In this document: positions 6,201 through 22,282 of the stretch, one piece after another | Layout: every line of letters starts with the position of its first letter | Position numbering within the stretch: the first letter of the stretch is position 1 | Source of the DNA: Candidatus Latescibacterota bacterium | Lineage (GTDB): Bacteria > Latescibacterota > UBA2968 > UBA8231 | DNA length: 64,000 nt | Reading direction: 5' to 3' | Assembly: GCA_965217585.1 (NCBI GenBank) | Contig: OZ244561.1 | Coordinates: 4,256,001 to 4,320,000, forward strand | The notes under the pieces: generated by a model | What the model was told of the DNA's origin: nothing | The model's input: the letters and a program-made list of their open reading frames with translations, nothing else | The model's database searches: none | Made by a program: the position numbers and the translations under genes

Positions 6201-7932
6201 CTTTTTTACTAAAGCCTTGGAGCTAGACGACGAAGAAAGTCAGACCGCCGACATTGAGAGTATTCTGAGTATGTTCTTGTCGCAAGGGGTACCGGAGTCC
6301 ATGTTGCGCTGGCACTATCGGAGCCGACACGATTCCCTAATTGCCGTTTCCAATCGGGAATTTTACGATGGCCGCTTGATGATCTTCCCCAGCCCCGGGG
6401 TGAATCCCTACGCCAAGGGCTTGACATTTAACCATCTGCCCGAGTCAGTGTACGAGCGCGGTAGTTCGCGCACTAACCCGATGGAGGCGCGCGCCGTAGC
6501 CGAGGCGGTCATGCGCCACGCCAAAGCGCACCCGGATATGACCTTGGGAGTGGTCGCGTTTTCGACGGCTCAACGCGATTGTATTTTGCTGGAAATCGAG
6601 CGGTTGCGGCGTTTAGAGCCGAGTTGTGAGGAATTTTTTACTACGGGCGCGCTAGAAGGCTTTTTTGTAAAAAACTTGGAGAACGTGCAGGGGGATGAGC
6701 GCGATGTGATTTTCATCAGCATTGGCTATGGCCGTACGGCCGCTGGCAACATAAGCACGAGTTTTGGTCCGGTGAACCGCGAGGGCGGTGAGCGCCGCTT
6801 GAATGTGTTGATCACGCGCGCACGCTTGGCGATGGAGGTCTTTAGCAATTTTACGGCGGACGACATTAAAACCGAGATCAATTCGCCGTTTGGGGTTCGC
6901 GCCTTGAAGAGCTTCTTGCACTACGCGCAGACCGGTGAATTAGATCATCGCCACGAAACCGGGAAGGAGGCGGATTCGCCGTTTGAAGAGGCCGTGAGCG
7001 ACGCCATTCGCCATCTAGGCTATGACATTGAGCCGCAAGTGGGTTCGGCAGGCTTCTATATTGACATTGCCGTGCGCGACCCCGAAAAGCCCGGCCGCTA
7101 TATTTTGGCAGTAGAGTGCGACGGTGCGAGTTATCACAGCTCGGCAACGGCCCGTGATCGCGACCGTTTGCGCCAAAGCGTGCTAGAGGGATTGGGCTGG
7201 CGCTTCCATCGCATTTGGAGTACCGACTGGTTCCGGGACCCTCATAAAGAAAGCGTGCGCCTCAAGGATTCTATTGACCGAGCGCTGCGCTTTTACGAGG
7301 CGGAAGAAACCCACGCCGAGCAACCCCGTGTCGCAGCGCAGCCCAAGCGCATCGAGCGCGACGAGCCGACGGAAAAAGATTTGCGGGCCGACGCCTATGT
7401 GTTGGCCACGGGCGATTTGGGCATTGCTAATTTCGCTGAAATCCACGAGTTACCATTAAACAACGTCGCTCAAGCCATGCGCAAGGTAATTGACATTGAA
7501 GGCCCCGTTCACCTGACAGAGGCGGCGCGGCGACTCGCTGAATCGGCTGGCTTTGCCCGCGTGGGTTCGCGAATGCTAGGGCATATAAAACGAGCCGCCG
7601 CATACGGTCAAAGAAACGGTTTCCTCTACTTAGAAGGCGACTTTCTATTTGTCGATAGCGATAAGCCTGTACGGGTGCGCGATCGCTCGGACATGCCACT
7701 CACCGTTAAGAAAATCGAGTTGGTGCCCGACGAAGAAATTCACGTGGCCCTGATTACGGCAATCCGCGCGGCCTTTAGCCTGTCGGAAGATGATGCTATT
7801 TCTGAGGCCCTATCGCTGATGGGCTTTCGCCGCGTAACGGCCAAAGCGAATCGGAAGGTAGGATCCGCGCTGAGAAAGCTGGTGCAGGACGGCGCGGTAA
7901 CGGTTGAGGACGACAAGGTTGCAGTCGCTTGA
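3274..7932 (+). CDS. DUF4011 + SF1 helicase + Vsr/MTES_1575-like nuclease + DUF3320 protein (Hhe-like candidate defence protein)
   Basis: N-terminal LLDMGLRGNTLLNF; Walker A QGPPGTGKSQT; DEASQ; GDTRQMPP; HYRS; ENVQGDERD; nuclease region FYIDIAV...AVECDGASYHS...RDRLRQSVLEGLGW. Confidence 0.85.
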   Translation: MQSLAEKLEVSRSELLDMGLRGNTLLNFRPGAKTLEVIDEKSREVFRILVAEQKPMAFIPVPASLEDESEQQALHQILEDQYADRRHTDNRLQTKLTADALDKSLLKISTEAEGYYQEQGVDLLYLALGFLTWYEHESSSTPRKAPLVLVPVALERGSARARYKVAYTQADLGPNLTLANKLKSEFEITLPEFGEELDIDEYLKEVAGSVDHQPRWQVQADEIALGFFSFGKFQMYQDLDPDNWPEDHKPYDHEVLQRLLDGGFEGVGDGLLSTPSEETSSELLNLTDLHFVLDADSSQTQAVMAVKQDANLVIQGPPGTGKSQTITNIIAEALADGKTVLFVAEKMAALEVVKRRLDECHLGDAVLELHSHKSNKSAVLQELRRTLELGPPAVENHAAKKRRHTQLREQLDAYCGEVNRSILTSGTSYINAQGHLLNLREEAGERELPALDFAEFRHWDGDAFTNACANVRELVEHLEAMGTPAQNPFAQSTLEHISPIEQNEVVTCLTKALASLSDCWKLGDTLSEEMGLDGPENLADMRAICRAGERVLNAPSLEGVQLTASDWKHRGEQIEALIQAGEEMTSLQDKRREQLIEQAWQANLLSVRQAWATTGRHWWRFIFPSFRRAQRTLQGLVKGELPAGAEACVALIDDILKYQALREPYTEHECLGESLLGIQWKGPRSDWSSLKVLSAWVVELYKEVGEGTVPEGLLKFLESGRKLKGGEEQLEGLERTAGELKELIDEVSQRLGMEARSIEEQPLGAMEDELNHWRDRIGTLEQMARYNHLRKKLCASELEQIDRLSYDWTWPPALLLTSLKKAYYEGLVNEAYNKSETLKRFNRMSHESAIAEFRRLDEDLLYHAQEELVLKHYHSLPAANAAGEMAIIRREINKKRRHMPIRRLITQAGRAIQQIKPVFMMGPMSVATYLEQGALDFELVVFDEASQVKVVDAIGPILRGKQVVVVGDTRQMPPTDFFTKALELDDEESQTADIESILSMFLSQGVPESMLRWHYRSRHDSLIAVSNREFYDGRLMIFPSPGVNPYAKGLTFNHLPESVYERGSSRTNPMEARAVAEAVMRHAKAHPDMTLGVVAFSTAQRDCILLEIERLRRLEPSCEEFFTTGALEGFFVKNLENVQGDERDVIFISIGYGRTAAGNISTSFGPVNREGGERRLNVLITRARLAMEVFSNFTADDIKTEINSPFGVRALKSFLHYAQTGELDHRHETGKEADSPFEEAVSDAIRHLGYDIEPQVGSAGFYIDIAVRDPEKPGRYILAVECDGASYHSSATARDRDRLRQSVLEGLGWRFHRIWSTDWFRDPHKESVRLKDSIDRALRFYEAEETHAEQPRVAAQPKRIERDEPTEKDLRADAYVLATGDLGIANFAEIHELPLNNVAQAMRKVIDIEGPVHLTEAARRLAESAGFARVGSRMLGHIKRAAAYGQRNGFLYLEGDFLFVDSDKPVRVRDRSDMPLTVKKIELVPDEEIHVALITAIRAAFSLSEDDAISEALSLMGFRRVTAKANRKVGSALRKLVQDGAVTVEDDKVAVA

Positions 7933-7946
7933 GTGCCCGCCACGAA

Positions 7947-10121
7947 TCAATCGCTCGGCAGTGTCGGTTCCAGTGGGATGGCTTGTCCCGCTTCCAGCAC
8001 CGCGCCGACCTCGCCGCGCAGCCGCTCTTTGAGCGTGGTGTAGCGCTGGGTGACCTTGTCGTTGGCAATGGCCAGCTTGAGGGCCTTGGGGGTGCCGACG
8101 ATGACAATCATTTGTTTGGCGCGGGTAATCGCCGTGTAGAGCAGGTTGCGCTGGAGCATCACGTAGTGCTGAGTCGTCAACGGCAGCACCACCACGGGAA
8201 ATTCCGACCCCTGAGAGCGGTGGATGCTGATGGCGTAGGCGAGGGTGAGCTGGTCGAGATCGACTTGATCGTATTCCAAGGTGTAGTCAAAGCGCACGTA
8301 GAGGACCTGCTTTTCTGCGTCGAGCCGCTCGACCGTGCCGATGTCGCCGTTAAAAACGCCCTTGTCGTAGTTGTTTTTGACCTGCATGACCTTGTCGCCC
8401 ACCCGGAACTCAGCCTCCCGATGGCGGTGCGCCTGACCGTGCGGGTTGAGGCGCTGTTGCAGCCGCTGATTGAGGTTGAGCGCACCGGTCTCACCTCGGT
8501 ACATGGGCGAAAGCACTTGGATGTCGGCGCGTTGATCCCACCCCCGATAGCTGGGCAGCCGCGTGGCGCACAATTCCTCCACCAGCTCGACCACCCGCTC
8601 CGGGTCGCCTTCTTGGAGGAAGTAGAAATCCGCGTCCGCATGGTTCTCAACGATGGGCATTTCGCCGCTGTTGATGCGGTGCGCGTTGCGGATGATGTGG
8701 CTTTTTTGGGCCTGGCGAAAAATCTGCGTCAGGCGCACCACCGGCACTTGTGCAGAGTCGATGACATCGCGGAGTACGTTGCCCGGCCCCACCGAGGGCA
8801 ACTGGTCGATGTCGCCGACTAGCACTAGCCGAGCGTGGTCGGGCAGGGCGCGCAGGAGCGCGTTCATCAGCACCACGTCGATCATGGAAGCCTCATCGAC
8901 GATCAGCGCGTCGACTTCGAGGCGGTCGTCGTAGCCCTTTTTGAATTGCCGCTCGCCCGGCTGAAATCCCAGCAGCCGATGAATGGTCTTGGCCTCGCGT
9001 CCGCTGGCCTCGCTCAGTCGCTTGGCGGCGCGGCCCGTAGGCGAGCACAGCCCGACCTTGAGGCCACCTTCCTCCAAGAGGTGCAAAATGCGCCGCGTGA
9101 CCGTAGTCTTGCCGGTGCCCGGCCCGCCGGTTAGCACCAGCACTTTGCTGGTGGCAACCAGTTCCACGGCTTGTATTTGCGCCGGGGCCAATTCCAGCCC
9201 GTCCTCCGCTGCTGCGGGCACGGCCAATGCTTCGGCCGGTGCTTGCAAGAGCCGCTTTAGCGACGATGCTGCACCCACTTCGGAGCGGTGGAGTGGCGGC
9301 AGATAGTAGCGCAGATCTTCGGTGACTGCTCCGTCGCTGGTGCGCAGGGCCTCTAATGCCGGCGGCAACAGCTCGGCGTTGATTTCCAAAATTTCGACGG
9401 CCCGCTCCATCATTTCGACGGCCGGCAGGTACACGTGGCCTTCGTCAGCCGCTTCGGAGAGCAGGTAGCGGATACCGGCCTGCACGCGCTCGGGTGCATC
9501 GTGGCCCAGGCCCAAGCGCTGGGCAATGCGATCGGCGATGCGGAAGCCGATCCCATCCACATCGCGCTCTAGGCGATAGGGATCGCTGCGCACCTTTTGA
9601 ATGGCCTCTTGGCCATAGGTCTTGAAGATTTTTACCGCGTAGCCGGTGGTAATCCCGTGCGACTGCAAAAAGACCATCACGTCCTTGATTTGCCGCTGCT
9701 CGTCCCAAGCCTCGGCAATCAGCTCGACTCTCTTCTTGCCCAGCTTGGGCACTTCCGCTAGCCGGTGGGGGTCCGCGTCGATGATGTCGAGCGTTTCCGC
9801 GCCAAAGTGCTCGACGATGCGCTTGGCCGATCTCGGCCCGACGCCTTTGATCAAACCGGACCCGAGGTACTTTTGCATCCCTTCGAGGGTCGAGGGATAA
9901 ACGGTCTTATAGCGCTCCACCTTGAGCTGTTTGCCGTATTTGGGATGATTGGTCCACACGCCTTCGACTTCGATGCTCTCGCCCTCTTGGATGGAGGCAA
10001 TCGCCCCCACGATTGCGATCCGCTCCCGCTGGCCCTCGACGACTAAGCGCGCAATGGTATAGCCGTTTTCCGGGTTGTGGTAGGTCAGGCGATCTATAAA
10101 GCCTTTATACGATTGGTTCAT
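7947..10121 (-). CDS. recD2: ATP-dependent RecD-like DNA helicase RecD2
   Basis: N-terminal OB/HhH (IKGVGP), TGGPGTGKT, DEASM, GDIDQLPSVGPG, AYAISIHRSQGSEF, YTAITRAK. Confidence 0.95.
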   Translation of the reverse strand: MNQSYKGFIDRLTYHNPENGYTIARLVVEGQRERIAIVGAIASIQEGESIEVEGVWTNHPKYGKQLKVERYKTVYPSTLEGMQKYLGSGLIKGVGPRSAKRIVEHFGAETLDIIDADPHRLAEVPKLGKKRVELIAEAWDEQRQIKDVMVFLQSHGITTGYAVKIFKTYGQEAIQKVRSDPYRLERDVDGIGFRIADRIAQRLGLGHDAPERVQAGIRYLLSEAADEGHVYLPAVEMMERAVEILEINAELLPPALEALRTSDGAVTEDLRYYLPPLHRSEVGAASSLKRLLQAPAEALAVPAAAEDGLELAPAQIQAVELVATSKVLVLTGGPGTGKTTVTRRILHLLEEGGLKVGLCSPTGRAAKRLSEASGREAKTIHRLLGFQPGERQFKKGYDDRLEVDALIVDEASMIDVVLMNALLRALPDHARLVLVGDIDQLPSVGPGNVLRDVIDSAQVPVVRLTQIFRQAQKSHIIRNAHRINSGEMPIVENHADADFYFLQEGDPERVVELVEELCATRLPSYRGWDQRADIQVLSPMYRGETGALNLNQRLQQRLNPHGQAHRHREAEFRVGDKVMQVKNNYDKGVFNGDIGTVERLDAEKQVLYVRFDYTLEYDQVDLDQLTLAYAISIHRSQGSEFPVVVLPLTTQHYVMLQRNLLYTAITRAKQMIVIVGTPKALKLAIANDKVTQRYTTLKERLRGEVGAVLEAGQAIPLEPTLPSD

Positions 10122-12084: not shown

Positions 12085-14505
12085 CTAGAAGATCAGCACG
12101 GAGACCGATTTCTGGATCAGGGCGATCCCCACCGCCGCCATGCCCATCAAGGCCATGCCGCAGGAAAAGCCCACCGCCAGAATCGGGGCAAACAGCCGCC
12201 ACTCTTGCCGCCCGTACTTGTTCCAGAAGTAGTAGCGAGCCAAGAGCGCGCCGATGATCTCGGTCACCACGAAATGCGGCAGTTGCGTCAGCGAGCGCAC
12301 GAAGCCAAAGATCAGCAGGATCGGCAGCCCGAGGATGGAGAGCAGAATGAAACTCACCAGCCCGAAGCCGGCACCAAAGGCGATGACCTCTAGTTTCAGT
12401 GCCCTAAAGAGCCAAGGCACGTCGGTGGATCGCTGGATCCAAGAGCTGGTAAAGAGCGGGTCGGTATCGACCTCAAAGTAGAAGAACCATCCCGCCGGCA
12501 CGGCTCGCTCGATCTTCACTTCGAGGGTCGGGCGGGGATCGCGGATGACGGTGTCCATAGCCGGTCCCAAGGGCGCAATCGCCGGCAGACCCGCGACAAC
12601 TTCATCTTCGACTAGCAGCTCGTCGCGCAGGTAGCGCTCGGCGACGATGTCGGGTGCCCCTTGATCGAAGTACGAGTAGAAAACTTGGGTCGGCATCCAC
12701 GGACCGCCTTGGCCGCGCTTGCCTTCGGAGTCCAGCCATTCCTGATCCACCAGCCGCGTCCGCCAGTACCACCACTCGTTATCGATTAGATTGGCCGGAG
12801 TCCATCCCGCGCGGTCGTTGTCTACGGCCAGTTCGCTGCGCATGGTGCCGGTGATATAGAGGCATTGCTGGTAGGCGCGCAGCCGCCAGATGAGCTGGGC
12901 ATAGGGGTAGGAGGCCGAAGGGATCGGTGCCAGTTTCCAGATATAGGAGCCGTAGAGAAAACTGGTAAAGAGCACGACGGGCACCATGAAAATCTCGGCG
13001 CGAATGATGCTGGTAAACTGGGTGCCGGTCAGTTCGATTTCGCGGAACTTCTGGGTCTGGGCACCGTAGTTACCCAAGGGAAACGGAATGAACCAGATGT
13101 CAACGCCGCGATACCCAGAGAAGATAATCGTCGCCTCGCGCACGAAGGGGATGTCCACCGTCTGTCCCACCATCCCGACTAGGCGGGCGTTGACGAAGGA
13201 TTGAAAGGGCGTGAATACGAAACCAAAGAAGAGGAAAAACCATATAAATTGAGCAATGCCCGGCAGCAGCCAAGCGGCGACGCCGATCAGGCCGGCCGTG
13301 GCTAAAGAGTACAGTGCCAACGCCAACCAGATGGGGAAATCGCCGCGGCCGGCGGGGGTGGCAAAGCTGCGCTTGGGACTGCCATCATCCCCGTTGTTAG
13401 CCCTAGCACTGAGCACGCTCTGAACTATCTGATAGATGCCGATGACGGCGATGGCGAAGGTAGTGCCGAGGCCAAAGCTCATCCAGAAATCGACTTGGTT
13501 GACGAAGACGGTCTCGATCGTGCCCATGCCTTGCTGCCACAAGTTCAGATACGGCATCTCGCGCCACGAAGGCGTCCAAGTATAGAGCAGCGGGTTGGCA
13601 ATGGAGGCGACGACCACGCCGATAAAGGTGCCAATCACGCCCCAGAACGGCACCACTAAACCGACGAATATCGGCCCCAAGTGCGCGGTAAATCCCAGCG
13701 GAGTGGCCGGGATAAAGTTGCCGGTGACTTGCGTGAAGTCGACAAAGGGAATGGGTATGAGTTGGATTGGTTCGGTCAGCAGCGCGCCGGTAATCGCCGG
13801 CAGGGCCACGTAGATCGTGCCAAAGACCAAGCCGATCATCGCCCCTGCCGAGAATACCCGCCAGCGCCACGTCTCAACCCCTTGGGTGGTCTCAGCTAGC
13901 GCCATAGCGCCTTGGGCGTTTACGGGTGCGAAGGGAAAGGGCAGACGCTCGTAGTCGGAGGTGAGCCGGAAGAGCGCGTACGACATAGTGAACCAGTTGA
14001 TGCGCGAGATGATCATCCCCAAGACTAGGAGTACGATCGGCATCGCCCAATCCGAGTGTAGGAAGGTGCGCTCGAGGATGGCGGCGGAGTTGAGCGGCGG
14101 TGCCACCCAAGTGGGGATCAGCTTGGTGATGCCGAACTGCTTGGCCGCCGGCGATTGCACCAAGTACTGGTTGTAGAGCAATCCCTCAAAGGCGCCGGTC
14201 TCCGCGGCAATCAGCGAGGCGGCCACGTAGAACAGCACATAGACTTCTTGGCGCCGGAGGGTGGAAAAGGAGCGCTTGGTGATTTCGGCGAAGAGGATGA
14301 TAGTCACCCACTCGGCCGCCGCCCCCAAAGAGCCACCGATCATCAGGCTCAAGTACATGTTGCCCGGCACCATGATAAAGGCGACGAAGAACACGCCGAG
14401 GATGGCCTTGATCGTAAAGCCGTTCTCGAAGTGGTCCGGGACCTGCATTAAATCCCGATATTCTTCGATCTCTTGGTTCGGGTTTCTATTTTTGCTTCCG
14501 AGCAC
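12085..14505 (-). CDS. OPT-superfamily-like (peptide transporter-like) membrane protein with a soluble insertion
   Basis: Many TM segments; ERLPFPFAPV motif resembles OPT-type LxFP; GGAGG RBS. Confidence 0.7.
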   Translation of the reverse strand: MLGSKNRNPNQEIEEYRDLMQVPDHFENGFTIKAILGVFFVAFIMVPGNMYLSLMIGGSLGAAAEWVTIILFAEITKRSFSTLRRQEVYVLFYVAASLIAAETGAFEGLLYNQYLVQSPAAKQFGITKLIPTWVAPPLNSAAILERTFLHSDWAMPIVLLVLGMIISRINWFTMSYALFRLTSDYERLPFPFAPVNAQGAMALAETTQGVETWRWRVFSAGAMIGLVFGTIYVALPAITGALLTEPIQLIPIPFVDFTQVTGNFIPATPLGFTAHLGPIFVGLVVPFWGVIGTFIGVVVASIANPLLYTWTPSWREMPYLNLWQQGMGTIETVFVNQVDFWMSFGLGTTFAIAVIGIYQIVQSVLSARANNGDDGSPKRSFATPAGRGDFPIWLALALYSLATAGLIGVAAWLLPGIAQFIWFFLFFGFVFTPFQSFVNARLVGMVGQTVDIPFVREATIIFSGYRGVDIWFIPFPLGNYGAQTQKFREIELTGTQFTSIIRAEIFMVPVVLFTSFLYGSYIWKLAPIPSASYPYAQLIWRLRAYQQCLYITGTMRSELAVDNDRAGWTPANLIDNEWWYWRTRLVDQEWLDSEGKRGQGGPWMPTQVFYSYFDQGAPDIVAERYLRDELLVEDEVVAGLPAIAPLGPAMDTVIRDPRPTLEVKIERAVPAGWFFYFEVDTDPLFTSSWIQRSTDVPWLFRALKLEVIAFGAGFGLVSFILLSILGLPILLIFGFVRSLTQLPHFVVTEIIGALLARYYFWNKYGRQEWRLFAPILAVGFSCGMALMGMAAVGIALIQKSVSVLIF

Positions 14506-14518
14506 TCGCTAGCCTCCC

Positions 14519-17500
14519 TTACGCCGACACTTCGCTGCGCAGCCCTTGCAGAATTTCCGCGCCCTGTTGGCGGTAGCCTTCTTTGGCCTCGGCATCCACC
14601 GTGCGCCAGATGAGGAACTGTTTGCGGATGACGTTCATAAAGCGCTGGTTGACCCTCCGCCACGAGGCGTCCTCGCCGCTGAGTCGCTTGATTTGCAGGC
14701 CGACTGCGTAAATGTTGTGCTCGGCCTCTGGCATGGCCTGCACGGTGACGTGTTGGCTGACGCCCAAGTCGAAAGGAGCCAGCCAGATATTCATGTCGAT
14801 GAGGTACCCTTCGCCGTTGGGCGTTTCTTCGCGTCTCAAGCTGGCACCGTCGGTGTAGAAGGTGCCGATGGACTCCTCACTGTAGGAGTCGAAGTAGCCG
14901 ATGAGGAATACGCTCAAGCCCAAGACCTCGTGGCCGCTGACCGTAAAGGGGAACTCGAAATCCCACTGGTCACCGTCGGGCGGCGGCAGCTTCCACTTGC
15001 GGGTCACGTCCGGCACGGCCATCTGCGAAGCCTTGCGCGCTGGATAAATCGTCGAGAGCATGACCACGGCCATCACCAGCATACAGGACAGCACCGCTGC
15101 TACTGAGGAGTAGTTGAGCGTGAAGCCGCCCAGCAGATCGAACTCGATGAGCACTTTGGCGATTACTTGGCCGCTGAGATAACCAGCGACGACGCCCAGC
15201 ACCGAATAGACGCAACTCTCGGCGATAAAGAGCCAAGAGATATGGCCGGGGGCTAGGCCCACCGAAGAGTAGATGCCGATTTCGCGGAAGCGCTCGTACA
15301 CGCTGCCCATCATGGTGTTGAGCACGATCAGCGAGGCGATCAGCATGGGGATAAACAAGTTGCTCATGCCGGAAAAGGAGGTCAGCCCCAGCGATGAGTA
15401 AATCGCCACCTTGATGTATTCATCGCCGGGCTCCTTGACTCCGGCGAACAGCGTCACCGCGAGGCGCGCGAGAAACTCCTCGACCTCGCCGCGCACGTCG
15501 GTGCCCCCGGGAAAGCGCACGGCCACCGATTGCAGGGGGTTGCCGCTGCCGACGTTGCGCAGCGTGTGGTAGGGCGTGATTAGGATGTTGGCCGGTTCTA
15601 GATGGACAAAGGGCTTGATGACGACCTTGGCGTCCTCCAAGCCCTGCTTTTCGCGCTTTTCTTCCTCGGCGATTTCCTGTACGGCTTGGCCGCCGGTGAC
15701 GGCGAAGTCGGCTGGCGTCAGGATTTCATCGTCGAGGTCTTTGAGGTCCTTCATCCGCTTGGAGTCGAGGACGCCAACGACCGTGAACAAGTCGCCGAAG
15801 ACCCTGACTTTCGCTCGGCCGACATCGGCTAAGTCAATGTCGAGATGGGCCTCCTTAACCATGTCGATGGGCAGGATGCAAACCTTGTCCTCGCCCGGCC
15901 CAAACCACCGCCCGGCGACTAGGGCTTGGTCCAGCCCGGTGACCTCGGTTTCCTCCGGGGTCAATCCGAGGACACCGAGCGCGTTATGGGCCTTGTCACC
16001 GTGTTTTATTTTGATGTGCGCCTTGGCCTTGTTGCTGTACCAGCTGCGCGGTGCGACCGCGGCCCGATCACCGAAATTGCTGCGGGCGTATTCGAGCACG
16101 GAATCTTCCATCGGATTCCATGCCTTGCTGCGGATTAGGATGCCTTCGTAGAGGCCCTCGTTGTCGCGGCTGATTTGGTTGAACCGCAGGCCCGTGCGGA
16201 TGGAGGTGAAAGACAGCACCGTAAAGGTCAGCAGCAAGAGCGTGGTAAAGGTGAGAACCGTGCGCGTCTTGCGCCGCTTCATGTTGGAAATCCCGAGCTC
16301 GAAGGCCGTTACCGAAGCCGAAGAGCGGCTGACGTCCGTGTCGTGGATCACGGCCACCTCGGTGCGCAGCTTTTTCATCTGCTCGTTGAAGCGGCCGGAA
16401 ATGATCGACATCACGAGAGCGGCCAGCGCGATGATGATGAAAGCGAGCAGAATGACGAAGGGATTGGATAGCTGAAAGGCCGGATGCACCATCCACAGCA
16501 CGATCCAGATCACTAGGAATACCCCGACGAATCCGATGATCTGATTGCGGATCGTGGCGGCGGAAAAAATGAGTCGCTCGGTAAAAAAGGCGCAGGGAAT
16601 GACGAGGGCCATAAAGAAGATAATGCCCTGAACGACGTCGTTTTGGGTGGATTTGACGTCTGGATAGGCGCGCGACTCCAGCCCAAAGGCCGCGCGCGTG
16701 TGACGCACAAAGTCGCGCCAACGCAGCTCGGCACCCGCCGTCGCGGCTTGAGCTAACTCGGTCTCGGCCCGGTAGTGGAGATCGTTGAGACGCTGGTTCT
16801 CAATCGCAAAGCTCCGCAACTCGCGCATCCGCGACTCGTCGAGATTCCACATGTCTTGGGCGGCTTGGAAGGTCGTGCGGGCAAAGGAAGTACCGGGGCG
16901 GATCTCAAAGCCCTCGCCCTCGGCCTTGTCTTTGTCGGTGGCACTGGTGGAGTTGAGCAGCAGCGAGCGAAATCCCAGCAGGCCAGCGCCAAAACCCATC
17001 TTGACGCGCGAGCCGGGCCGCGCGAAGAGCACCCCAACCGGCTCGTTTTGGGCCGAGGGGCCTTCGCCGATGGTGTAACCGTACTCCACGGGTGCGCCGT
17101 TTGTCTCGTCGAAGACCGCCACGTTGGATAGCTTGGTGAGATAGCGCGGATCGACGATGTCGAAGAAGTTGTAGGGCACGCAGGGGAAGAGGATGACCAT
17201 CCACTGCTTGTCGCGCCAGTCCATGGAGACCCTCATCGGGTAGCTCTCGTCGCCTTGCACGCCGCGATCCGGGGCGTAGGTGATGCGGCCGGTGATCGGG
17301 TCCATGTAGTAGCCCTCGATCTGCACGTTGTTGACCCGCACCCGATTTACGTAAAAGGCCCCCTTATCATCGACGACCTCGTAGTACTCGCCGCGCACGC
17401 CTTTGTACGACTTTTTCTTGCCGTTGCGCACGACGGCCACTGCGTCTGCACGCGGTAGGTCGGGGATGATGCTGCGGCGCGGAAAGACCATGGTCCGACC

Positions 17501-19348
17501 GCGCAGCGAGCGCAGATTGTCGCGCAGGCGCATCTTGAAGTCCGGGAAAAGCTCTGGGTCTTCAAAGGCCATCTCGAACATGCCGGCGAGCACCCGGATC
17601 TGTTTGGCGAGATTGGCGTGGTTGACGTGCTCGGCTCGATCTAAGGGCGTATCGACGAGGAAGCGCGCATCGTTGACGGTGACAAAGGCCAACGCCGGCG
17701 TACCCGTCGCCAACACCAATTCGCTATTGACCGATATTTCGCCCGGCACAAAGGTCTGCCAGCTCATCCCGCCTTCGGGACTGATGCCATTGACCAACAC
17801 GTCGCGCCGCTGGTAGCCCAACTCGCGGCTGATCTTGCGCGCATAACCCATAAAGTTCTTGCCGAAGGGCGCGAAGTAGCGCTTGTAGTAAAAGCTGGTA
17901 TTGCTATTCCATACTCCGAGCTCGTCGGTCTGCGACGACAGGTCGAGGCTGATGAAGAGCTTGACCGCGAGCGAATCGACTTTGGGATCGACCCAGCGCT
18001 TGTAGAGCGCAAGGCGCAAGTCGTCGTCCGAGTGCAACTCATCAACCAGTTCGTCGCGGTTTTTGAATTGCTTGCCGGCGAGGTGCAGTGCGCCTTCTTC
18101 TCGACTCAGCAGCCCCTTAATGCCCTCTATTGTCTTCTTCCACAAGCCCCACGAACTGCTGGCTGCGTCTTCCTCTTGGCTCAGCAGCCCTTCGGCGAGT
18201 GCGGCGTCGGCAATGTGCGCGGCCAAGTCGGTACGTCCTTCGGCAACGCTCCGCACGAGGGCTTCCTTGCCGGTAAACTCCTCCTCCTCGCCGATGGCGT
18301 AGTGGATGCCGTCTTGGGCGACCATGTTCCGCGCAAGTGCGGCATCGACGACCCGCCGTACCAGCATGTGTTCGATAAAGGGATCCTCTTTGCGCAAATA
18401 GCGCTGGATGAAATCATCGACCCCGCGCAGGCCCAAGTGGTGCGCCGAAGTGGCGAGAAAGACGATCGTGCGCGCCGGTGGGTTGGCGCGAAAATAGCGC
18501 GCCAGCTCTAAAAGCGCAGTAATGCTGGAGGCCTGCTCGGCACCCGGGGCGAGGGCTGGCACGACCGACATGGCGTCGTAGTACGCCTCCAGCACGATTA
18601 CGTCTTCTTTCAGCAAGGGATCGTATCCGGGGATCGTGCCGAGGATATTCCAAGCAGAACGCCGCTCCCAATCCATGCGGTACTCGAGGTGGAGCGTCTG
18701 CTCGCCCGCGGCGGCCAACTGGTGGCGCAAGTGATGGCCGGCTTGGCGATTGATCCAGAACCTCGGCAGGTCGAGCGGCATGGAGAGGAACTTTTTTTCG
18801 CCCTCCAGGTACACGGTGGAGTCCGGCTCGATAAAGAGGATGGCCTGCGCCCCGAGATAGGCGGCATTGAGCCAAGCGTCGCCCGAATTGAAGTCCATCA
18901 GGGCCACGGCTCCTTCGACTTGTTTGCCGTCCATGTCCGCGTACTCGCCCGCGCCGGCGTCGATCAAGCGCCCGGTCACCCCGCCTTCGGGCAGCGTCGA
19001 GGTTTTGACTAGATTGGGCCAGAGGCCGTGGATTGGCACTGATTCGTCGCTGCCGACGACTTGCAGAAACCCACCCTTATCGACCGGAATCGAGACATCG
19101 TATTCGTGGATTGCGATGTCGTCGAGGCCGATTGCACGGAAGCGCTCCTGCACGATCTGGGCCGCTTGGTCGGCACCTGGGTAGCCGGCGATTCTAGATC
19201 CCAAGCTGGCAAAGGTGTCCATCGTCTGCTGCACGCGCTCGACTGGGGTCGTGCGCGCCAACTCGGCAAAATCGACCTCGGCTTGGGCTAGTGTTGCGCC
19301 GGCCAGAACCCAGCCGAAGGCCATCCACCTCACCGCGAACTTAGGCAT
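14519..19348 (-). CDS. Fusion: signal peptide - PA/M28-peptidase-like domain - extracytoplasmic region - FtsX/MacB-like permease (1609 aa)
   Basis: Start reassigned to ATG 19348 (GAAAGG RBS, signal MPKFAVRW...AQA); M28-like LEAYYD/PGAEQASSITALLELARYF; permease signatures SNMKRRKTRTVLT, ERFREIGIYSSVGL, YPARKAS. Confidence 0.85.
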   Translation of the reverse strand: MPKFAVRWMAFGWVLAGATLAQAEVDFAELARTTPVERVQQTMDTFASLGSRIAGYPGADQAAQIVQERFRAIGLDDIAIHEYDVSIPVDKGGFLQVVGSDESVPIHGLWPNLVKTSTLPEGGVTGRLIDAGAGEYADMDGKQVEGAVALMDFNSGDAWLNAAYLGAQAILFIEPDSTVYLEGEKKFLSMPLDLPRFWINRQAGHHLRHQLAAAGEQTLHLEYRMDWERRSAWNILGTIPGYDPLLKEDVIVLEAYYDAMSVVPALAPGAEQASSITALLELARYFRANPPARTIVFLATSAHHLGLRGVDDFIQRYLRKEDPFIEHMLVRRVVDAALARNMVAQDGIHYAIGEEEEFTGKEALVRSVAEGRTDLAAHIADAALAEGLLSQEEDAASSSWGLWKKTIEGIKGLLSREEGALHLAGKQFKNRDELVDELHSDDDLRLALYKRWVDPKVDSLAVKLFISLDLSSQTDELGVWNSNTSFYYKRYFAPFGKNFMGYARKISRELGYQRRDVLVNGISPEGGMSWQTFVPGEISVNSELVLATGTPALAFVTVNDARFLVDTPLDRAEHVNHANLAKQIRVLAGMFEMAFEDPELFPDFKMRLRDNLRSLRGRTMVFPRRSIIPDLPRADAVAVVRNGKKKSYKGVRGEYYEVVDDKGAFYVNRVRVNNVQIEGYYMDPITGRITYAPDRGVQGDESYPMRVSMDWRDKQWMVILFPCVPYNFFDIVDPRYLTKLSNVAVFDETNGAPVEYGYTIGEGPSAQNEPVGVLFARPGSRVKMGFGAGLLGFRSLLLNSTSATDKDKAEGEGFEIRPGTSFARTTFQAAQDMWNLDESRMRELRSFAIENQRLNDLHYRAETELAQAATAGAELRWRDFVRHTRAAFGLESRAYPDVKSTQNDVVQGIIFFMALVIPCAFFTERLIFSAATIRNQIIGFVGVFLVIWIVLWMVHPAFQLSNPFVILLAFIIIALAALVMSIISGRFNEQMKKLRTEVAVIHDTDVSRSSASVTAFELGISNMKRRKTRTVLTFTTLLLLTFTVLSFTSIRTGLRFNQISRDNEGLYEGILIRSKAWNPMEDSVLEYARSNFGDRAAVAPRSWYSNKAKAHIKIKHGDKAHNALGVLGLTPEETEVTGLDQALVAGRWFGPGEDKVCILPIDMVKEAHLDIDLADVGRAKVRVFGDLFTVVGVLDSKRMKDLKDLDDEILTPADFAVTGGQAVQEIAEEEKREKQGLEDAKVVIKPFVHLEPANILITPYHTLRNVGSGNPLQSVAVRFPGGTDVRGEVEEFLARLAVTLFAGVKEPGDEYIKVAIYSSLGLTSFSGMSNLFIPMLIASLIVLNTMMGSVYERFREIGIYSSVGLAPGHISWLFIAESCVYSVLGVVAGYLSGQVIAKVLIEFDLLGGFTLNYSSVAAVLSCMLVMAVVMLSTIYPARKASQMAVPDVTRKWKLPPPDGDQWDFEFPFTVSGHEVLGLSVFLIGYFDSYSEESIGTFYTDGASLRREETPNGEGYLIDMNIWLAPFDLGVSQHVTVQAMPEAEHNIYAVGLQIKRLSGEDASWRRVNQRFMNVIRKQFLIWRTVDAEAKEGYRQQGAEILQGLRSEVSA

Positions 19349-19365: not shown

Positions 19366-21336
19366 TCAGATCCAGAAGACCACATTGTCGGTCATACCCA
19401 TAAAAAAGTCGATAATCAACCAAAGCCCGGCGATGAAAAACTGGCCTATGATCAGGCCTAAAAAGAAGGGACGCGCCCGGCGAAAAAGGCTGGGACCGCC
19501 GTATTTCATCGCCAATAGCTTTAAGAGCCAAGCAAGGGCAATGCTAAACCACAACTGATCCATCAGCCATACGGCACCAATGGGGTATCCAATGGGATGC
19601 AGAGGCCACCACAAGAGCCGCTGGCGCGCCCACATGAGCAGGGCCATGATGCCCCCGCCGACAAAAGTGTGAATCCAGCCATCGATGTTCGGCTTGGTGG
19701 GCGCGCTTAACTTGGTGGTAATATAATCAAAAGGGGCGCGAGTTCCACCACCAAAAAACCACCCGTTGAGATTGATGCCGCCGTATTCGTAGGCGAGGTA
19801 CAAAATCGCTGCGACCGAACCGACAATGCTGACAAAAATCGCCAGCAGCATGTACCAAAAAAGCGGTCGCAGCCGCGGCCCCAGTTCTTCGCCCAGCTTG
19901 AGGCCGTGTGCGCAGGAAGCCATGACAAACGTGCGGATATCCGCCGCCCACACATAGGTGTACGCAAGGCCCACCATGCCCGCCGGTCCGATCGCCGAAG
20001 AGCCTACGGCCGAGACCAAGGCCGACGAAGAAATCATCGGCCCGACTGCCGCTGCCACGCCCCCCTCTACTACCACTCGGGTCAGGCCGATGAAGATAAG
20101 AATGGCCAGCATCAGGGTCAAAAGGGACGCCCACAGCGGCAAGCCGGACTGCCACAGCCAGATGGTCATCACCGCGACTCCGGCGAGCCAGGTTAAGACC
20201 GCCGCCCGGTAGGACAGCATCTCGCCGCGGTCGTCGATGCGGTCGTCGCCCGTGAGGGCCTTGCGCAGTACGTCGCGCAGGTGTTCGCGGCCGACCCATA
20301 GGCCGAAGAACACTAAGACGATCATCGCCCCCTGCCCTTGGTGGGCGAGAATTGGCTCGCTAGGAGCGCCGTAAATGCCCAGCTTTTCGGTGCTGCCGAC
20401 TCCTAAAACCCCCAGCCCCCCTCGGATCAGCTTGGCGATGGTGTTGAAAAACCACAGACTGAAGGCGATGTCGAGGTTGATTAAATAGGCGAACCCCACC
20501 ATGGGAAAGCTCAGGCGGAAGATCAGGCTGACGGTATTGCGCAGGATCGGAACGGAGGAGACGAGCTGGATGGCGGGAATGAAGTTGAAGTACGCGTGTA
20601 GGGCGTTGAGGCTGCTGACGAGCACAGGCAAGGCAAAGCCGATCCACATGATCGGGTTTTTGAAGAAAGGACCTAGCGCCTGTCCGCGGTCTCCGCTCTC
20701 CACCATGGCCAAGGGCACTTGCACCAGCGGGTAAACTAGCCGCTCCCGCTCCACCCACTGGCGGCGCAGAATGACCATAGACGAGATCATAACCAAGTAC
20801 AGGGCCACGATCAGCACGGCCCAATAGCACAGCGGGCCACCCCAGACGGCCCAAGGCACCCCAGCGGTGCGCGGTGCTCCTTCGTAAAACCACTTGATCG
20901 ACTCGGGATCCTGCGGCGCGATCCACTCGGGAAGGTGCGGCAGGATGTGCAAGGCCCACTCGTTTTCCGGGGTGGCGTAGTACTGAGCGCCGGTGATGAT
21001 CGTCAGCCAGTACTCGCTGAGGCCCATCGTGGGGATGGCCGAGGCCGTGAGCATCATAATGTACGCGACGATGAGCTCGCAGCGCCCGAGGGCCACAGGG
21101 GCGGCGAAGCGAGTCAGCAAGGCGTTGAACAAGCCCGTCAGCACGAAGAAGAGGAACAGGGCACCCGCCGCGCTGAAATCAATCGACATGTAGGAGCCGC
21201 GGATGACCATATTGCCGTACGGTGCCCCCACGGCGATGCACAGTGACCCTAGGGTGCCCGCCACCAGCGCTTTGGCGCTGAAGACCGGCTCGGCTCGTAC
21301 TGGGGCCTGAGAGGTAGGCTCTTTCGACAAATCCAT
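19366..21336 (-). CDS. DUF6785/DUF6784-like multi-pass membrane protein (OPT-related)
   Basis: RRQWVERERLVYPLVQVP, WWPLHPIGY, KYGGPSLFRRARPFFLGLIIG; very hydrophobic. Confidence 0.75.
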   Translation of the reverse strand: MDLSKEPTSQAPVRAEPVFSAKALVAGTLGSLCIAVGAPYGNMVIRGSYMSIDFSAAGALFLFFVLTGLFNALLTRFAAPVALGRCELIVAYIMMLTASAIPTMGLSEYWLTIITGAQYYATPENEWALHILPHLPEWIAPQDPESIKWFYEGAPRTAGVPWAVWGGPLCYWAVLIVALYLVMISSMVILRRQWVERERLVYPLVQVPLAMVESGDRGQALGPFFKNPIMWIGFALPVLVSSLNALHAYFNFIPAIQLVSSVPILRNTVSLIFRLSFPMVGFAYLINLDIAFSLWFFNTIAKLIRGGLGVLGVGSTEKLGIYGAPSEPILAHQGQGAMIVLVFFGLWVGREHLRDVLRKALTGDDRIDDRGEMLSYRAAVLTWLAGVAVMTIWLWQSGLPLWASLLTLMLAILIFIGLTRVVVEGGVAAAVGPMISSSALVSAVGSSAIGPAGMVGLAYTYVWAADIRTFVMASCAHGLKLGEELGPRLRPLFWYMLLAIFVSIVGSVAAILYLAYEYGGINLNGWFFGGGTRAPFDYITTKLSAPTKPNIDGWIHTFVGGGIMALLMWARQRLLWWPLHPIGYPIGAVWLMDQLWFSIALAWLLKLLAMKYGGPSLFRRARPFFLGLIIGQFFIAGLWLIIDFFMGMTDNVVFWI

Positions 21337-21371: not shown

Positions 21372-21893
21372 TTATTGGCCCTGGTCCAACCAGCCTATTT
21401 TTGCTAGTTGTTCCAAGGTCCACCAAGCCAAAAACCCGATCACTCCTCCGCTGACCAAAGCGCTGAACAAGGCCAGCGGCAACAGTGCGAACAGACCGCT
21501 GTGGCCGATATAGCCAGAGGCGAGGACGAGCTGGCTGAGCTGGTGCGCCAACGCGCCCCAGATGCTCAGACCCACGACGCTGAAAAGCCGCGCTCCCATG
21601 CGGCGGACCGCAACCATGACCAACCAGCTCGCCAAGCCAGCCCCACCGCCAATGACAAAGGCCGGACCGGCAAATCCCCCGCTGAGCAAGCCGCCAGCTA
21701 CGAGCTTGATGGCACTAACGGCCAACGCCGGACCGCCGCCAAAGCTCACCAGCGCGACCAAGACCGGCAGATTGCCGAGCCCCAACTTCATCCAGGGCAA
21801 GGGTTTGGGCACCAGCGCTTCAAAGGCGAAGAGCACGATTGCCGCACTGGCTATAAGCCCCAAACGGGCCACGTCTCTAGGCTGCGCAAACAT
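21372..21893 (-). CDS. Gx transporter / heptaprenyl diphosphate synthase component I family membrane protein
   Basis: PKPLPWMKLGLGN and SIWGALAHQLSQL motifs; ATG 21893 overlaps the upstream TGA (TGATG). Confidence 0.8.
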   Translation of the reverse strand: MFAQPRDVARLGLIASAAIVLFAFEALVPKPLPWMKLGLGNLPVLVALVSFGGGPALAVSAIKLVAGGLLSGGFAGPAFVIGGGAGLASWLVMVAVRRMGARLFSVVGLSIWGALAHQLSQLVLASGYIGHSGLFALLPLALFSALVSGGVIGFLAWWTLEQLAKIGWLDQGQ

Positions 21894-22282
21894 CAGCGAA
21901 TCATCGCGTCTATGGGCGCGGCTCCAGCGATCCTCAGCACTAGGCCGTTGGGCACGCACGCGGCTACGTCGCCCGCCTGCCGCATCCAGCCCTGCCGCAT
22001 GCAGATCTTGTGGACGCAGGGCGCGGAAATCACGCGCACCCCCTTGGGGCCGATCTCGATTTCGCTCGCTCCCAAAGGTCCTACAACCGGCAAGACCCCG
22101 TAGCTGGAGAGGGCATGTGCGGCGGGCGCGGCCCCTGCCAACTCGACGATGAGCACGCCGCCGGCCTCGGCCGTGTAGCGGCCGTAGAGTACCAGCCCGA
22201 TCGCACTCAAGCCCACGACGAGCGCGAGGATTTTATCCGCTCGCGTCAACGCCGGTGCGTTTTCGGTATTTAGCCGCCACAT
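21893..22282 (-). CDS. NusG domain II-containing (DUF1312) membrane-anchored protein
   Basis: TRADKILALVV anchor; GPLGASEIEI, APCVHKICMRQGW, ACVPN. Confidence 0.85.
   Translation of the reverse strand: MWRLNTENAPALTRADKILALVVGLSAIGLVLYGRYTAEAGGVLIVELAGAAPAAHALSSYGVLPVVGPLGASEIEIGPKGVRVISAPCVHKICMRQGWMRQAGDVAACVPNGLVLRIAGAAPIDAMIR

Follow-up and report, generated by a model that had tools for sequence, protein, structure and literature searches.

An M28-like ectodomain with a remodelled zinc site heads an FtsX-type membrane protein linked to putative OPT-fold permeases in a Latescibacterota bacterium

The protein encoded at 14519..19348 on the minus strand of the window (the whole 64,000-nucleotide stretch of Candidatus Latescibacterota bacterium DNA that was analysed) carries a periplasmic M28-like ectodomain in which the zinc ligands of M28 aminopeptidases are absent as a set. 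We put at about one in two the probability that this PA/M28-fold ectodomain holds a rebuilt, selectively kept zinc site that would be used for binding or altered chemistry, in the service of OPT-fold permeases. Judging from the pattern of kept and substituted residues, it is probably neither a canonical di-zinc aminopeptidase nor a decaying relic.

The open reading frame starts with MPKF at 19348 (residue 1) and gives 1609 amino acids, ordered as a signal peptide, the PA/M28-like ectodomain, a β-rich middle region, three transmembrane (TM) segments, a MacB-type periplasmic core domain, an FtsX TM bundle and a C-terminal domain. Homologues of this protein, which we call M28-FtsX, extend over its full length; from record P0099 on, they align with just 46-48% of the query region. 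Pfam places Peptidase_M28 at residues 234-318, MacB_PCD at 1030-1216 and FtsX at 1332-1443, with both the FtsX TM domain (PF02687, 56.7 bits) and the MacB periplasmic core (PF12704, 33.2 bits) above their cut-offs, and profile searches with the family match MacB (5LIL), YtrF and LolC/E/F. These two domains, together with the three TM segments predicted by hydropathy scan (residues 903-989), make up the membrane part of the protein (15020..16642, minus strand). An internal duplication of this part, in which the first TM region would be a second, degenerate FtsX unit, is unsupported: residues 890-1000 and the FtsX region 1315-1445 pair with an hhalign probability of ~1%.

The ectodomain, delimited by an AF2 model, Foldseek and VIA, spans residues 25-600 (17549..19276, minus strand) and encloses the remodelled site. 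Its model (pLDDT 92.8, pTM 0.92) has the full M28 core fold, superposing on 1AMP with a Z of 29.6 and an rmsd of 2.5 Å over 265/291 residues, whilst VIA gives a Z of 29.4 to 6HC6 and the best Foldseek matches are 2EK8 (E 1.9e-22), 6HC6/7, PaAP, TfR1 and GCPII. The PA-domain M28 aminopeptidases (Bacillus subtilis YwaD/BSAP 6HC6, Aneurinibacillus 2EK8 and Pseudomonas PaAP), in which a PA domain is likewise inserted into the M28 core, are thus the best matches by both sequence and fold; alignment to 2EK8 and 6HC6 locates the PA (protease-associated) insert at about residues 124-239 (18632..18979, minus strand). Unlike these secreted enzymes, the head of M28-FtsX is joined to a membrane module of the FtsX type, and it contains an extra insertion of ~140 residues between motifs 3 and 4 (residues ~320-460; 17969..18391, minus strand), built of helices and small sheets in the AF2 model. 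The proposal of the sequence-only reading that the scaffold is intact therefore stands for the M28 core, but not for this stretch.

The same reading had picked out five strings, AYYD, GAEQ, AHH, LD and VDTPLD, as replacements for M28 motifs. All five are encoded there on the minus strand, and their equivalence to the M28 motifs was examined with phmmer, MAFFT, the family profile, the AF2 superposition and Pfam. In motif 1 (AYYD, residues 255-258; 18575..18586), Tyr256 takes the place of the first His ligand and Asp258 is retained; in motif 2 (GAEQ, 269-272; 18533..18544), Glu271 replaces the bridging Asp, and Gln272 an Asp or Asn; and in motif 3 (AHH, 302-304; 18437..18445), His303 stands at the position of the catalytic general-base Glu, the first of the EE pair, and His304 at that of the Glu ligand. 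Asp469, in motif 4 (SLDL, 467-470; 17939..17950), is the fourth of the canonical ligands His, Asp, Glu, Asp and His, and the only one unchanged, whilst Asp566, in motif 5 (VDTPLD, 565-570; 17639..17656), probably takes the place of the last His, with Asp570 retained. Just ahead of motif 5 lies a family-specific pair, Asp560-Ala-Arg562 (17663..17671), that is unmatched in canonical proteins.

Several alignments support these equivalences. Elsewhere, the same genome encodes canonical M28 enzymes with an intact H/D/EE/D/H set, and in two M28 proteins of this genome the counterparts of the five motifs read GHYD, xDN, EE, ND/LD and H-x-x-x-D. A MAFFT alignment that adds two of the genome's canonical PA-M28 proteins sets Y256 against His, E271 against Asp, Q272 against Asn, H303/H304 against Glu-Glu and D469 against Asp, the last being the Asp of 'INND'/'INLD'. 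Against the PDB, phmmer pairs 'leayydamsvvpalapgaeq' with 'VTAHYDSV-P-FSPGAND' of YwaD, and 'flatsahhlglrg' with 'FIAFGAEELGLLG'. The final motif is less secure: the family profile pairs 'vDtPlD' with 'YHTPND' of 2EK8, a stretch that is weak on its own, and since MAFFT drops the canonical His into a 5-residue gap and not opposite D566, the equivalence of the two is only the likeliest one. Pfam Peptidase_M28 (PF04389) clears its cut-off of 21.3 with 35.9 bits, and covers only positions 1-79 of the 193 in the profile. The PA-M28 aminopeptidases and the M28-FtsX head have in common PGA, TPxD, the HxD Asp and the residue equivalent to Asp179, and they differ in that the catalytic Glu has become His, the Glu ligand His or Phe, the first His Tyr, the bridging Asp Glu and the last His Asp.

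How far these substitutions are kept was assessed in 121 close homologues, 149 distant representatives (drawn from a search that gave 688 representatives at E<=1e-30) and a further 39 proteins. Motifs 4 and 5 are gapped in 53-58 of the 149 distant rows, which are fragments or poorly aligned by hmmalign, so the distant counts for these motifs rest on fewer sequences. In the close set H303, D258, E271, D469, D560, R562, D566 and D570 are each present in 121/121, and position 256 is Tyr in 117 and Phe in four. The same residues persist from orthologues at 91-98% identity down to paralogues at about 45%, and all seven paralogues in this genome keep the signature. Conservation of the substituted positions among orthologues, proposed beforehand as the check on the idea, thus holds for His303, Tyr256, Glu271, Asp469 and Asp566 alike, and drift was not what we found; of these five, only His303 holds across the family.

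Beyond the close set, H303 is found in 144/145 aligned distant rows and 35/39 further proteins, D258 in 148/148 distant rows, D560 in 96/96 distant and 36/36 further rows aligned there, and R562 in 95/96 and 36/36, such that the invariance of His303, Asp560 and Arg562 spans sequences that are only about 30% identical. Among aligned distant rows D570 is kept in 94/95, D566 in 83/95 and D469 in 83/91, and in the PA insert K186 and R196 are each present in 147/148. Only 33 of 636 positions reach a conservation of >=93% in the distant set, 12 of them inside segments 250-276, 298-310 and 555-572. By contrast, distant representatives carry Y116/H13/F10 and others at position 256 (of 149), E103/D25/Q5/T4/G3/S3 at position 271, and F81/H16/Y16/C10/G10 at position 304 (of 149), where the close set has His in 117/121. 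Phe also occupies position 256 in 9/39 further proteins, among which one subclade combines Phe256, His469 and Gly566. Across these alignments, then, the constant features of the family are His303, Asp258, Asp560/Arg562, Asp570 and the Lys186/Arg196 of the PA lid, whereas the zinc-ligand-equivalent positions 256, 271, 304, 469 and 566 are conserved clade by clade only.

This pattern divides what had been claimed for the site. The replacement of the Glu pair by His-His is family-wide for the first His, but the second is specific to this orthologue group, Phe being the commonest residue there and His accounting for only 16/149. Since that second His is local, and positions 256, 271, 469 and 566 vary, the conserved core is His303/Asp560/Arg562 and not a swapped metal site; the idea that ligands were exchanged systematically to create a new metal site is not supported, and the same variation makes a single metal site shared by the whole family doubtful. 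On the other hand, the conservation of the substituted residues in the close set, and of His303 throughout, argues that this is not an ordinary aminopeptidase, as was proposed, and not drift. The sequence-only reading had spotted the invariant His303, Asp560, Arg562 and Arg196 only in part, and had missed both the FtsX membrane part and the tie to OPT-fold permeases.

The gene immediately upstream (19366..21336, minus strand) encodes a polytopic membrane protein in which Pfam yields DUF6785 and DUF6784 only, with OPT (PF03169) absent. It models as an OPT/Yellow-Stripe-like fold: with an AF2 model built on a 17-row alignment (pLDDT 84.9), Foldseek returns barley YS1 (7WSR/7WST) as the only PDB matches at E<=0.001 (E 6.8e-8, TM 0.62/0.67), and the matches that follow have a TM of about 0.1. 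In the Atlas, OPT-bearing clusters appear, at 0.77 only, for this partner, which is a lead. Downstream lies p806 (12085..14505, minus strand), an 806-residue polytopic membrane protein without a Pfam family; Pfam and NCBIfam gave no match for it or for the 330-aa and 206-aa downstream proteins, save a faint PAP2 signal (E 0.0025) for the 206-aa one. PDB profile searches with the p806 and DUF6785 alignments returned nothing relevant, and neither family matched UPF0182. A kinship between the two was considered, and at an hhalign probability of 8.8% (E 0.0038) is too weak to claim.

Each of the seven M28-FtsX copies in the genome has a DUF6785/6784 gene next to it, no more than about 4 kb away, or fused to it, as in the 2118-aa paralogue par4 of this genome and in a second fused record, P0293. 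Across 121 genomes, 108 are positive for M28-FtsX and 107 for DUF6785, both being absent from all 13 genomes of one family (f10). A p806 homologue occurs in 49/62 related loci, searched with a 15-row alignment, and the five p806-family members of this genome all have an M28-FtsX gene no farther than about 10 kb away. The module is locked genetically to the DUF6785/6784 permeases, of putative OPT/Yellow-Stripe fold, and to p806, probably likewise of that fold. The reverse dependence does not hold: an M28-FtsX gene neighbours just 7 of the genome's 77 DUF6785 genes, so these permeases are not in general need of the head, and the neighbours of 17 others are a mixture of gamma-glutamyltranspeptidase, sugar oxidoreductases, a BNR sialidase-like protein and TPR proteins. 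A predicted complex between the DUF6785 protein and M28-FtsX residues 1315-1609 scored 0.13 (mark 0.32), which speaks neither for nor against contact.

The membrane module is that of the Type VII ABC systems (MacB, LolCDE, FtsEX-EnvC and YtrEF), which share the FtsX TM bundle and the MacB-type periplasmic core domain, and FtsEX-EnvC provides a precedent for a degenerate metallopeptidase-like domain that acts with an FtsX module. In M28-FtsX, however, the peptidase-like domain is present in cis, the putative OPT-fold permeases are the constant partners, and all 85 ABC_tran (PF00005) matches in the genome are more than 15 kb from each of the seven copies, the nearest being 17 kb away. No ABC ATPase was seen in the scanned flanks of M28-FtsX loci either, though a partner could be encoded elsewhere.

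Could the head still be an aminopeptidase-type hydrolase, with His303 as general base and the carboxylate/Tyr set binding a single metal or a pair (Zn, Mn, Fe or Ca), which shortens peptides that the OPT-fold permeases then take up? We regard this as possible but unlikely. The best-scoring AAP entry against the M28-FtsX protein is PDB 2ANP, the E151H variant of the Aeromonas/Vibrio proteolytica aminopeptidase, titled 'Functional Glutamate 151 to Histidine mutant', which bears the very same Glu-to-His change at the general-base position; the paper matching this entry is said to be that of Bzymek, 2005. A strictly invariant His at such a position would be expected of a catalyst more than of a scaffold for binding. 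His256 and Asp271 occur together in some members, the two Asp residues within the site are both common, and the OPT-fold partners suit a peptide theme. However, 2ANP retains all five zinc ligands and the M28-FtsX family does not: Phe at position 304 in more than half of the distant representatives (81/149) removes one metal site, and both the Phe256 proteins (10/149 and 9/39) and the Gly566/His469 subclade count further against this reading. Moreover, the canonical M28 enzymes encoded elsewhere in this genome indicate that the remodelled form is not merely the phylum's version of the enzyme.

The opposite extreme, a dead pseudo-peptidase with a purely structural or protein-docking role, in which the conserved residues are structural, seems to us rather improbable. 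It would follow the transferrin receptor, nicastrin and nicalin; TfR1, nicastrin, nicalin and GPAA1 are non-catalytic M28-fold ectodomains of membrane complexes and, like the M28-FtsX head, membrane-attached M28/PA-like ectodomains that have lost zinc ligands inside a larger membrane assembly, albeit eukaryotic, single-pass and without an FtsX module. The canonical catalytic features are indeed all lost, the family profile matches nicalin (E 5e-8) and the transferrin receptor (E 2e-6), and TfR1 is also a strong fold match (Z about 27). D258, S261, PGA, P568 and D570 are conserved in canonical M28 proteins too, and may be structural. Yet His303, Asp560 and Arg562 are invariant without any counterpart in canonical M28, which is hard to explain by structure alone and speaks for a site in use. 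In addition, Tyr seems to shift between positions 256 and 304 in the distant set, where Tyr256 accompanies Phe304 in 72/81 rows and Tyr304 in only 5/16; such an exchange fits positions that neighbour one another at a used site, and suggests a hydroxyl in use. The chance that the substitutions arose by neutral drift, in a gene that is decaying or mis-assembled, is negligible, given an intact 1609-aa frame, residues kept from close orthologues to distant paralogues and a family found in 108/121 sampled genomes of the phylum.

Two more specific sites were considered and dropped. A transferrin/FbpA-like Fe(III) site of Tyr256-Tyr257 with a His and a Glu fails because Tyr257 is simply the usual central Tyr of the canonical H-Y-D, and a Ser-His-Asp triad through Ser261 fails because this residue matches the Ser of the canonical H-x-D-S in YwaD.

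We therefore return to the reading with which we opened, that of a rebuilt and selectively kept site. The fold suggests that His303, Asp560, Arg562 and Arg196 may come together in the old cleft, in which case the former active site would have become a polar His/Asp/Arg site that recognises a periplasmic substrate or acts by a non-canonical chemistry, and the old 'site 2' might hold one metal. The glutaminyl cyclases, M28-fold enzymes with one zinc (fold match Z 26-27), offer a precedent for an M28 scaffold with a partly kept site and changed chemistry; they retain an Asp/Glu/His zinc site and the catalytic Glu, whereas in the M28-FtsX head the Glu-ligand and catalytic-Glu positions are both changed. 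The M28-like domain would then form the head of a MacB/FtsX-type membrane module without a neighbouring ATPase, and its likeliest role, as we infer it, would be the capture, gating or trimming of a substrate imported by the OPT-fold permeases, with which it may form a physical complex. A bolder version, which we offer tentatively and with low confidence, is that His303, Asp560 and Arg562, with Asp258, Lys186 and Arg196, constitute a new active centre on the M28 scaffold that is independent of a zinc pair, and that couples periplasmic capture or processing to OPT-fold import through an FtsX module without an ATPase.

In the literature that we searched, with subscription journals outside its scope, we found no published description of the M28-FtsX/DUF6785 family, and this is probably a so far undescribed transporter-linked membrane module with an M28-like head. 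In genome surveys such proteins are counted among the M28 aminopeptidases, enzymes that set free amino acids loose; one example is the Latescibacteria genome analysis PMC4454575, in which M28 was assigned by MEROPS BLAST. This label is probably wrong for seven genes in this genome, and likewise for the wider family, with its 688 representative clusters (E<=1e-30). The family occurs in nearly all sampled genomes of the phylum, and it forms a fixed module with putative OPT-fold permeases and without the usual FtsX ATPase. The rebuilt site offers concrete residues for mutation: were it catalytic, it would represent new chemistry on an old scaffold, and were it a receptor, bacteria would have a parallel to the eukaryotic reuse of dead M28 ectodomains in membrane machines.

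The M28-FtsX product, 1609 residues long, is encoded by a single long gene (window 14519-19348, minus strand), whose longest frame begins earlier than the start that we assign, MPKFAVRW at 19348, which lies 18 bases past the upstream gene's stop and opens a signal-peptide-like stretch. Pfam places Peptidase_M28 at residues 234-318 (above cut-off, though the match reaches no further than profile position 79 of 193), MacB_PCD at 1030-1216 and FtsX at 1332-1443, and hydropathy points to some three TM helices at 903-989, a single one at 1030-1050 and three more at 1324-1438. The protein is therefore of MacB/FtsX type, and its M28-like part forms the extracytoplasmic head. After the last FtsX helix comes a conserved C-terminal domain of ~165 residues (1444-1609; window 14519-15019, minus strand), which matches no Pfam family, shows no Walker motif on visual inspection and may be a cytoplasm-facing part replacing the ATPase contact. 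None of the 85 ABC_tran matches in this 7.32 Mb, one-contig genome lies within 15 kb of any of its seven M28-FtsX copies.

The sequence-only reading had proposed an M28-like domain with swapped metal ligands, and its five motif strings, AYYD (255-258), GAEQ (269-272), AHH (302-304), LD (within SLDL, 467-470) and VDTPLD (565-570), were all confirmed in place. Against the PDB, phmmer pairs the head with two aminopeptidases that have a PA domain, 6HC6 (YwaD/BSAP, E 1.6e-9) and 2EK8 (E 1.9e-7), setting AYYD opposite AHYD, PGAEQ opposite PGAND and SAHH opposite GAEE. As internal controls we used two canonical PA-M28 proteins of the same genome (C1:4114548-4116119 and C1:2030018-2031385, both plus strand), each with intact GHYD/GHHD, xDN, EE, NND/NLD, SDH and H-x-x-x-D motifs; MAFFT alignment with the seven family copies equates Tyr256 with His, Glu271 with Asp, His303-His304 with Glu-Glu and Asp469 with Asp. 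Asp566 likely, if not certainly, takes the position of the canonical last His ligand: the family profile sets vDtPlD opposite YHTPND of 2EK8, and the uncertainty arises because that stretch is weak taken alone and because the canonical His falls into a 5-residue gap in the MAFFT alignment.

Residues 25-660 were modelled with AlphaFold2 on an 82-row alignment (pLDDT 92.8, pTM 0.92). For this model, Foldseek ranks 2EK8, BSAP, PaAP, 3IIB, transferrin receptor 1 and GCPII at the top (E 1e-22 to 1e-16), and VIA-align fits it to 1AMP (Z 29.6, rmsd 2.5 A, 265 of 291 residues) and to 6HC6 (Z 29.4 across 390 residues). The scaffold is intact in its core, which superposes on both enzymes, with an extra insertion of ~140 residues between motifs 3 and 4. 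PA-M28 aminopeptidases are the closest relatives of the head; the ligands and the catalytic Glu disqualify it as an active M28 peptidase, in agreement with the proposal that this is not an ordinary aminopeptidase.

When 1.84 billion representatives were searched exhaustively, 2919 proteins matched at E<=0.001, 688 of them also at E<=1e-30; most of the 150 matches listed have 1450-1750 aa. In a close set of 121 rows (the query and the 120 homologues listed by a separate search), Tyr257, Asp258, Glu271, His303, Asp469, Asp560, Arg562, Asp566 and Asp570 are each present in all 121, His304 in 117, and position 256 is Tyr in 117 and Phe in four. A distant set (149 of the 150 matches listed, 33-68% identity) keeps His303 in 144 of 145 aligned rows and Asp258 in 148/148; at motifs 4-5 the counts rest on fewer rows, as 53-58 of the 149 are gapped (fragments or poor alignment), and give Asp560 in 96/96, Arg562 in 95/96, Asp570 in 94/95, Asp469 in 83/91 and Asp566 in 83/95. 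Position 271 reads E103, D25, Q5, T4, G3 and S3 in this set, position 256 Y116, H13, F10 and a few others, and position 304 F81, H16, Y16, C10 and G10; 33 of the 636 domain positions are at least 93% conserved, 12 of them inside motif segments. Among 39 further proteins around one 33%-identical member, His303 is found in 35, Asp560 and Arg562 in 36/36 aligned and Arg196 in 37. Eight of these proteins (P0299, P0301, P0302, P0305-P0309) form a divergent subclade that carries Phe/Ala256, Asp271, Ala/Pro304, His/Tyr469 and Gly566, with Asp258, Asp560, Arg562 and Asp570 kept in all and His303 in five; here the ligand-equivalent positions are re-shuffled once more. All seven copies in the genome itself have [Y/H]-Y-D, E, H-[F/H], D, D-x-R and D-[TS]-P-x-D. 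With the family residues kept across the close, distant and further sets and in every genomic copy, drift is ruled out for practical purposes.

Across the family, the constant residues are Asp258, His303 (which occupies the general-base position), Asp560, Arg562, Asp570 and, in the PA domain, Lys186 and Arg196. The alignments mark His303, Asp560 and Arg562 as novel to the M28-FtsX family. The zinc-ligand-equivalent positions are constant within clades and differ between them, and the Glu-ligand position, 304, is Phe in most members, so that a di-metal site common to the family is unlikely. Nor does the His-His pair hold as a family feature: it is local, and in this genome only the window's copy has it. 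Tyr256 accompanies Tyr304 in 5 of 16 distant-set rows and Phe304 in 72 of 81; related sequences are not independent, and with that limit the shifting of a Tyr between 256 and 304 suggests a used hydroxyl and spatial nearness. We infer that the conserved residues cluster in space.

Taking binding and altered catalysis together, we give a used, non-canonical site a probability of about 0.5. Could the head instead be a surviving aminopeptidase-type hydrolase? PDB entry 2ANP is an Aeromonas enzyme variant, E151H, called 'functional' in its title; it shows that His at the general-base position can support hydrolysis with zinc ligands intact; those of the M28-FtsX head are not, and we consider this reading unlikely, if worth keeping in mind. 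Less likely again is a purely structural pseudo-peptidase: Asp258, Ser261, the PGA turn, Pro568 and Asp570, also found in canonical M28, may be structural, and the apparent shift of a Tyr between 256 and 304 suggests a hydroxyl in use.

The partner membrane protein in the window is DUF6785/6784 (19366-21336, minus strand). A DUF6785/6784 gene lies directly upstream of three of the seven copies, directly downstream of one, one gene away from another and ~4 kb from a sixth; the seventh is a fusion of M28-like head, FtsX module, DUF6785 and DUF6784 in one 2118-aa frame (G000:C1:137652-144008, minus strand; L074:3252-9608). As a Rosetta-stone fusion it links the two gene families, and a second fused record, P0293 (2088 aa), has the same Pfam set. 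Among 121 sampled genomes of the phylum, the head occurs in 108 and DUF6785 in 107, each in 13 of 14 families and each in 0/13 genomes of family f10; the single discordant genome is 67% complete. DUF6785 is also expanded in this genome, with 77 ORFs (nine have an M28-FtsX gene no more than 12 kb away, 68 are farther from any), seven DUF6785/DUF6784 tandem groups (six of two genes, one of four) and heterogeneous neighbours around 17 sampled genes. All five genes that the genome has from the family of p806, an 806-aa polytopic membrane protein (window 12085-14505, minus strand), lie within ~10 kb of an M28-FtsX copy; the one beside paralogue 2 (G000:C1:6458320-6461511, 1063 aa) has PDZ domains.

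Across 62 related loci from Latescibacterota MAGs, some labelled Gemmatimonadota, the orthologous order is NusG_II, Hpre_diP_synt_I, (DUF6785/6784), M28-FtsX, p806, p330, p206 (330- and 206-aa proteins) and RecD2. Using the window's proteins, tblastn finds p806 in 49 loci and DUF6785 in 35, counts that may fall short, as some loci are truncated and distant partners can escape detection. More distant loci have DUF6785/6784 immediately upstream of M28-FtsX, and L061:886-14356 holds this pair twice in tandem, and the gene that comes next is a fusion of AdoMet decarboxylase and spermidine synthase. A UPF0182 (PF03699) membrane protein takes the place of p806 directly downstream in two paralogous loci from other MAGs (L049:14756-17590; L053:14787-17633); no profile similarity between it and p806 or DUF6785 was detected. 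The NusG_II-domain protein and Hpre_diP_synt_I-family membrane protein directly upstream (window 21372-22282, minus strand) keep their position in most orthologous loci, even where no DUF6785 gene separates them from the M28-FtsX gene. The RecD2-type helicase (window 7947-10121, minus strand), also syntenic in most, adjoins a 1552-aa DUF4011/AAA_11/AAA_12/MTES_1575 nuclease/DUF3320 helicase-nuclease (window 3274-7932, plus strand).

The window's DUF6785/6784 member models as an OPT/Yellow-Stripe-like fold (AlphaFold2, 17-row alignment, pLDDT 84.9): just two PDB entries match it at E<=0.001, both of them barley Yellow Stripe 1 (E 6.8e-8, TM 0.62/0.67), all others having TM ~0.1. Atlas look-ups of DUF6785 and p806 reach 'peptide transporter' and OPT-bearing clusters, with scores (0.77-0.79 for clusters other than the query's own) that make them leads only, and hhalign hints weakly (probability 8.8%) at kinship between DUF6785 and the p806 family, which has no Pfam family.

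In databases the family goes under the names 'M28 family peptidase' and 'FtsX-like permease', and our literature search found no paper on it. The nearest functional parallels are the catalytically dead M28 ectodomains found in eukaryotic membrane complexes, and FtsEX together with its degenerate peptidase partner. What emerges is an FtsX-type membrane base that carries an M28/PA fold whose site has been rebuilt and kept by selection, without an ATPase in cis, and obligately linked to permeases of predicted OPT fold. In the reading that we favour, the head would bind what these permeases transport, or would act on that substrate by non-canonical chemistry; either would proceed through the His303/Asp560/Arg562 site in the old cleft, to which the PA lid would add Lys186 and Arg196.
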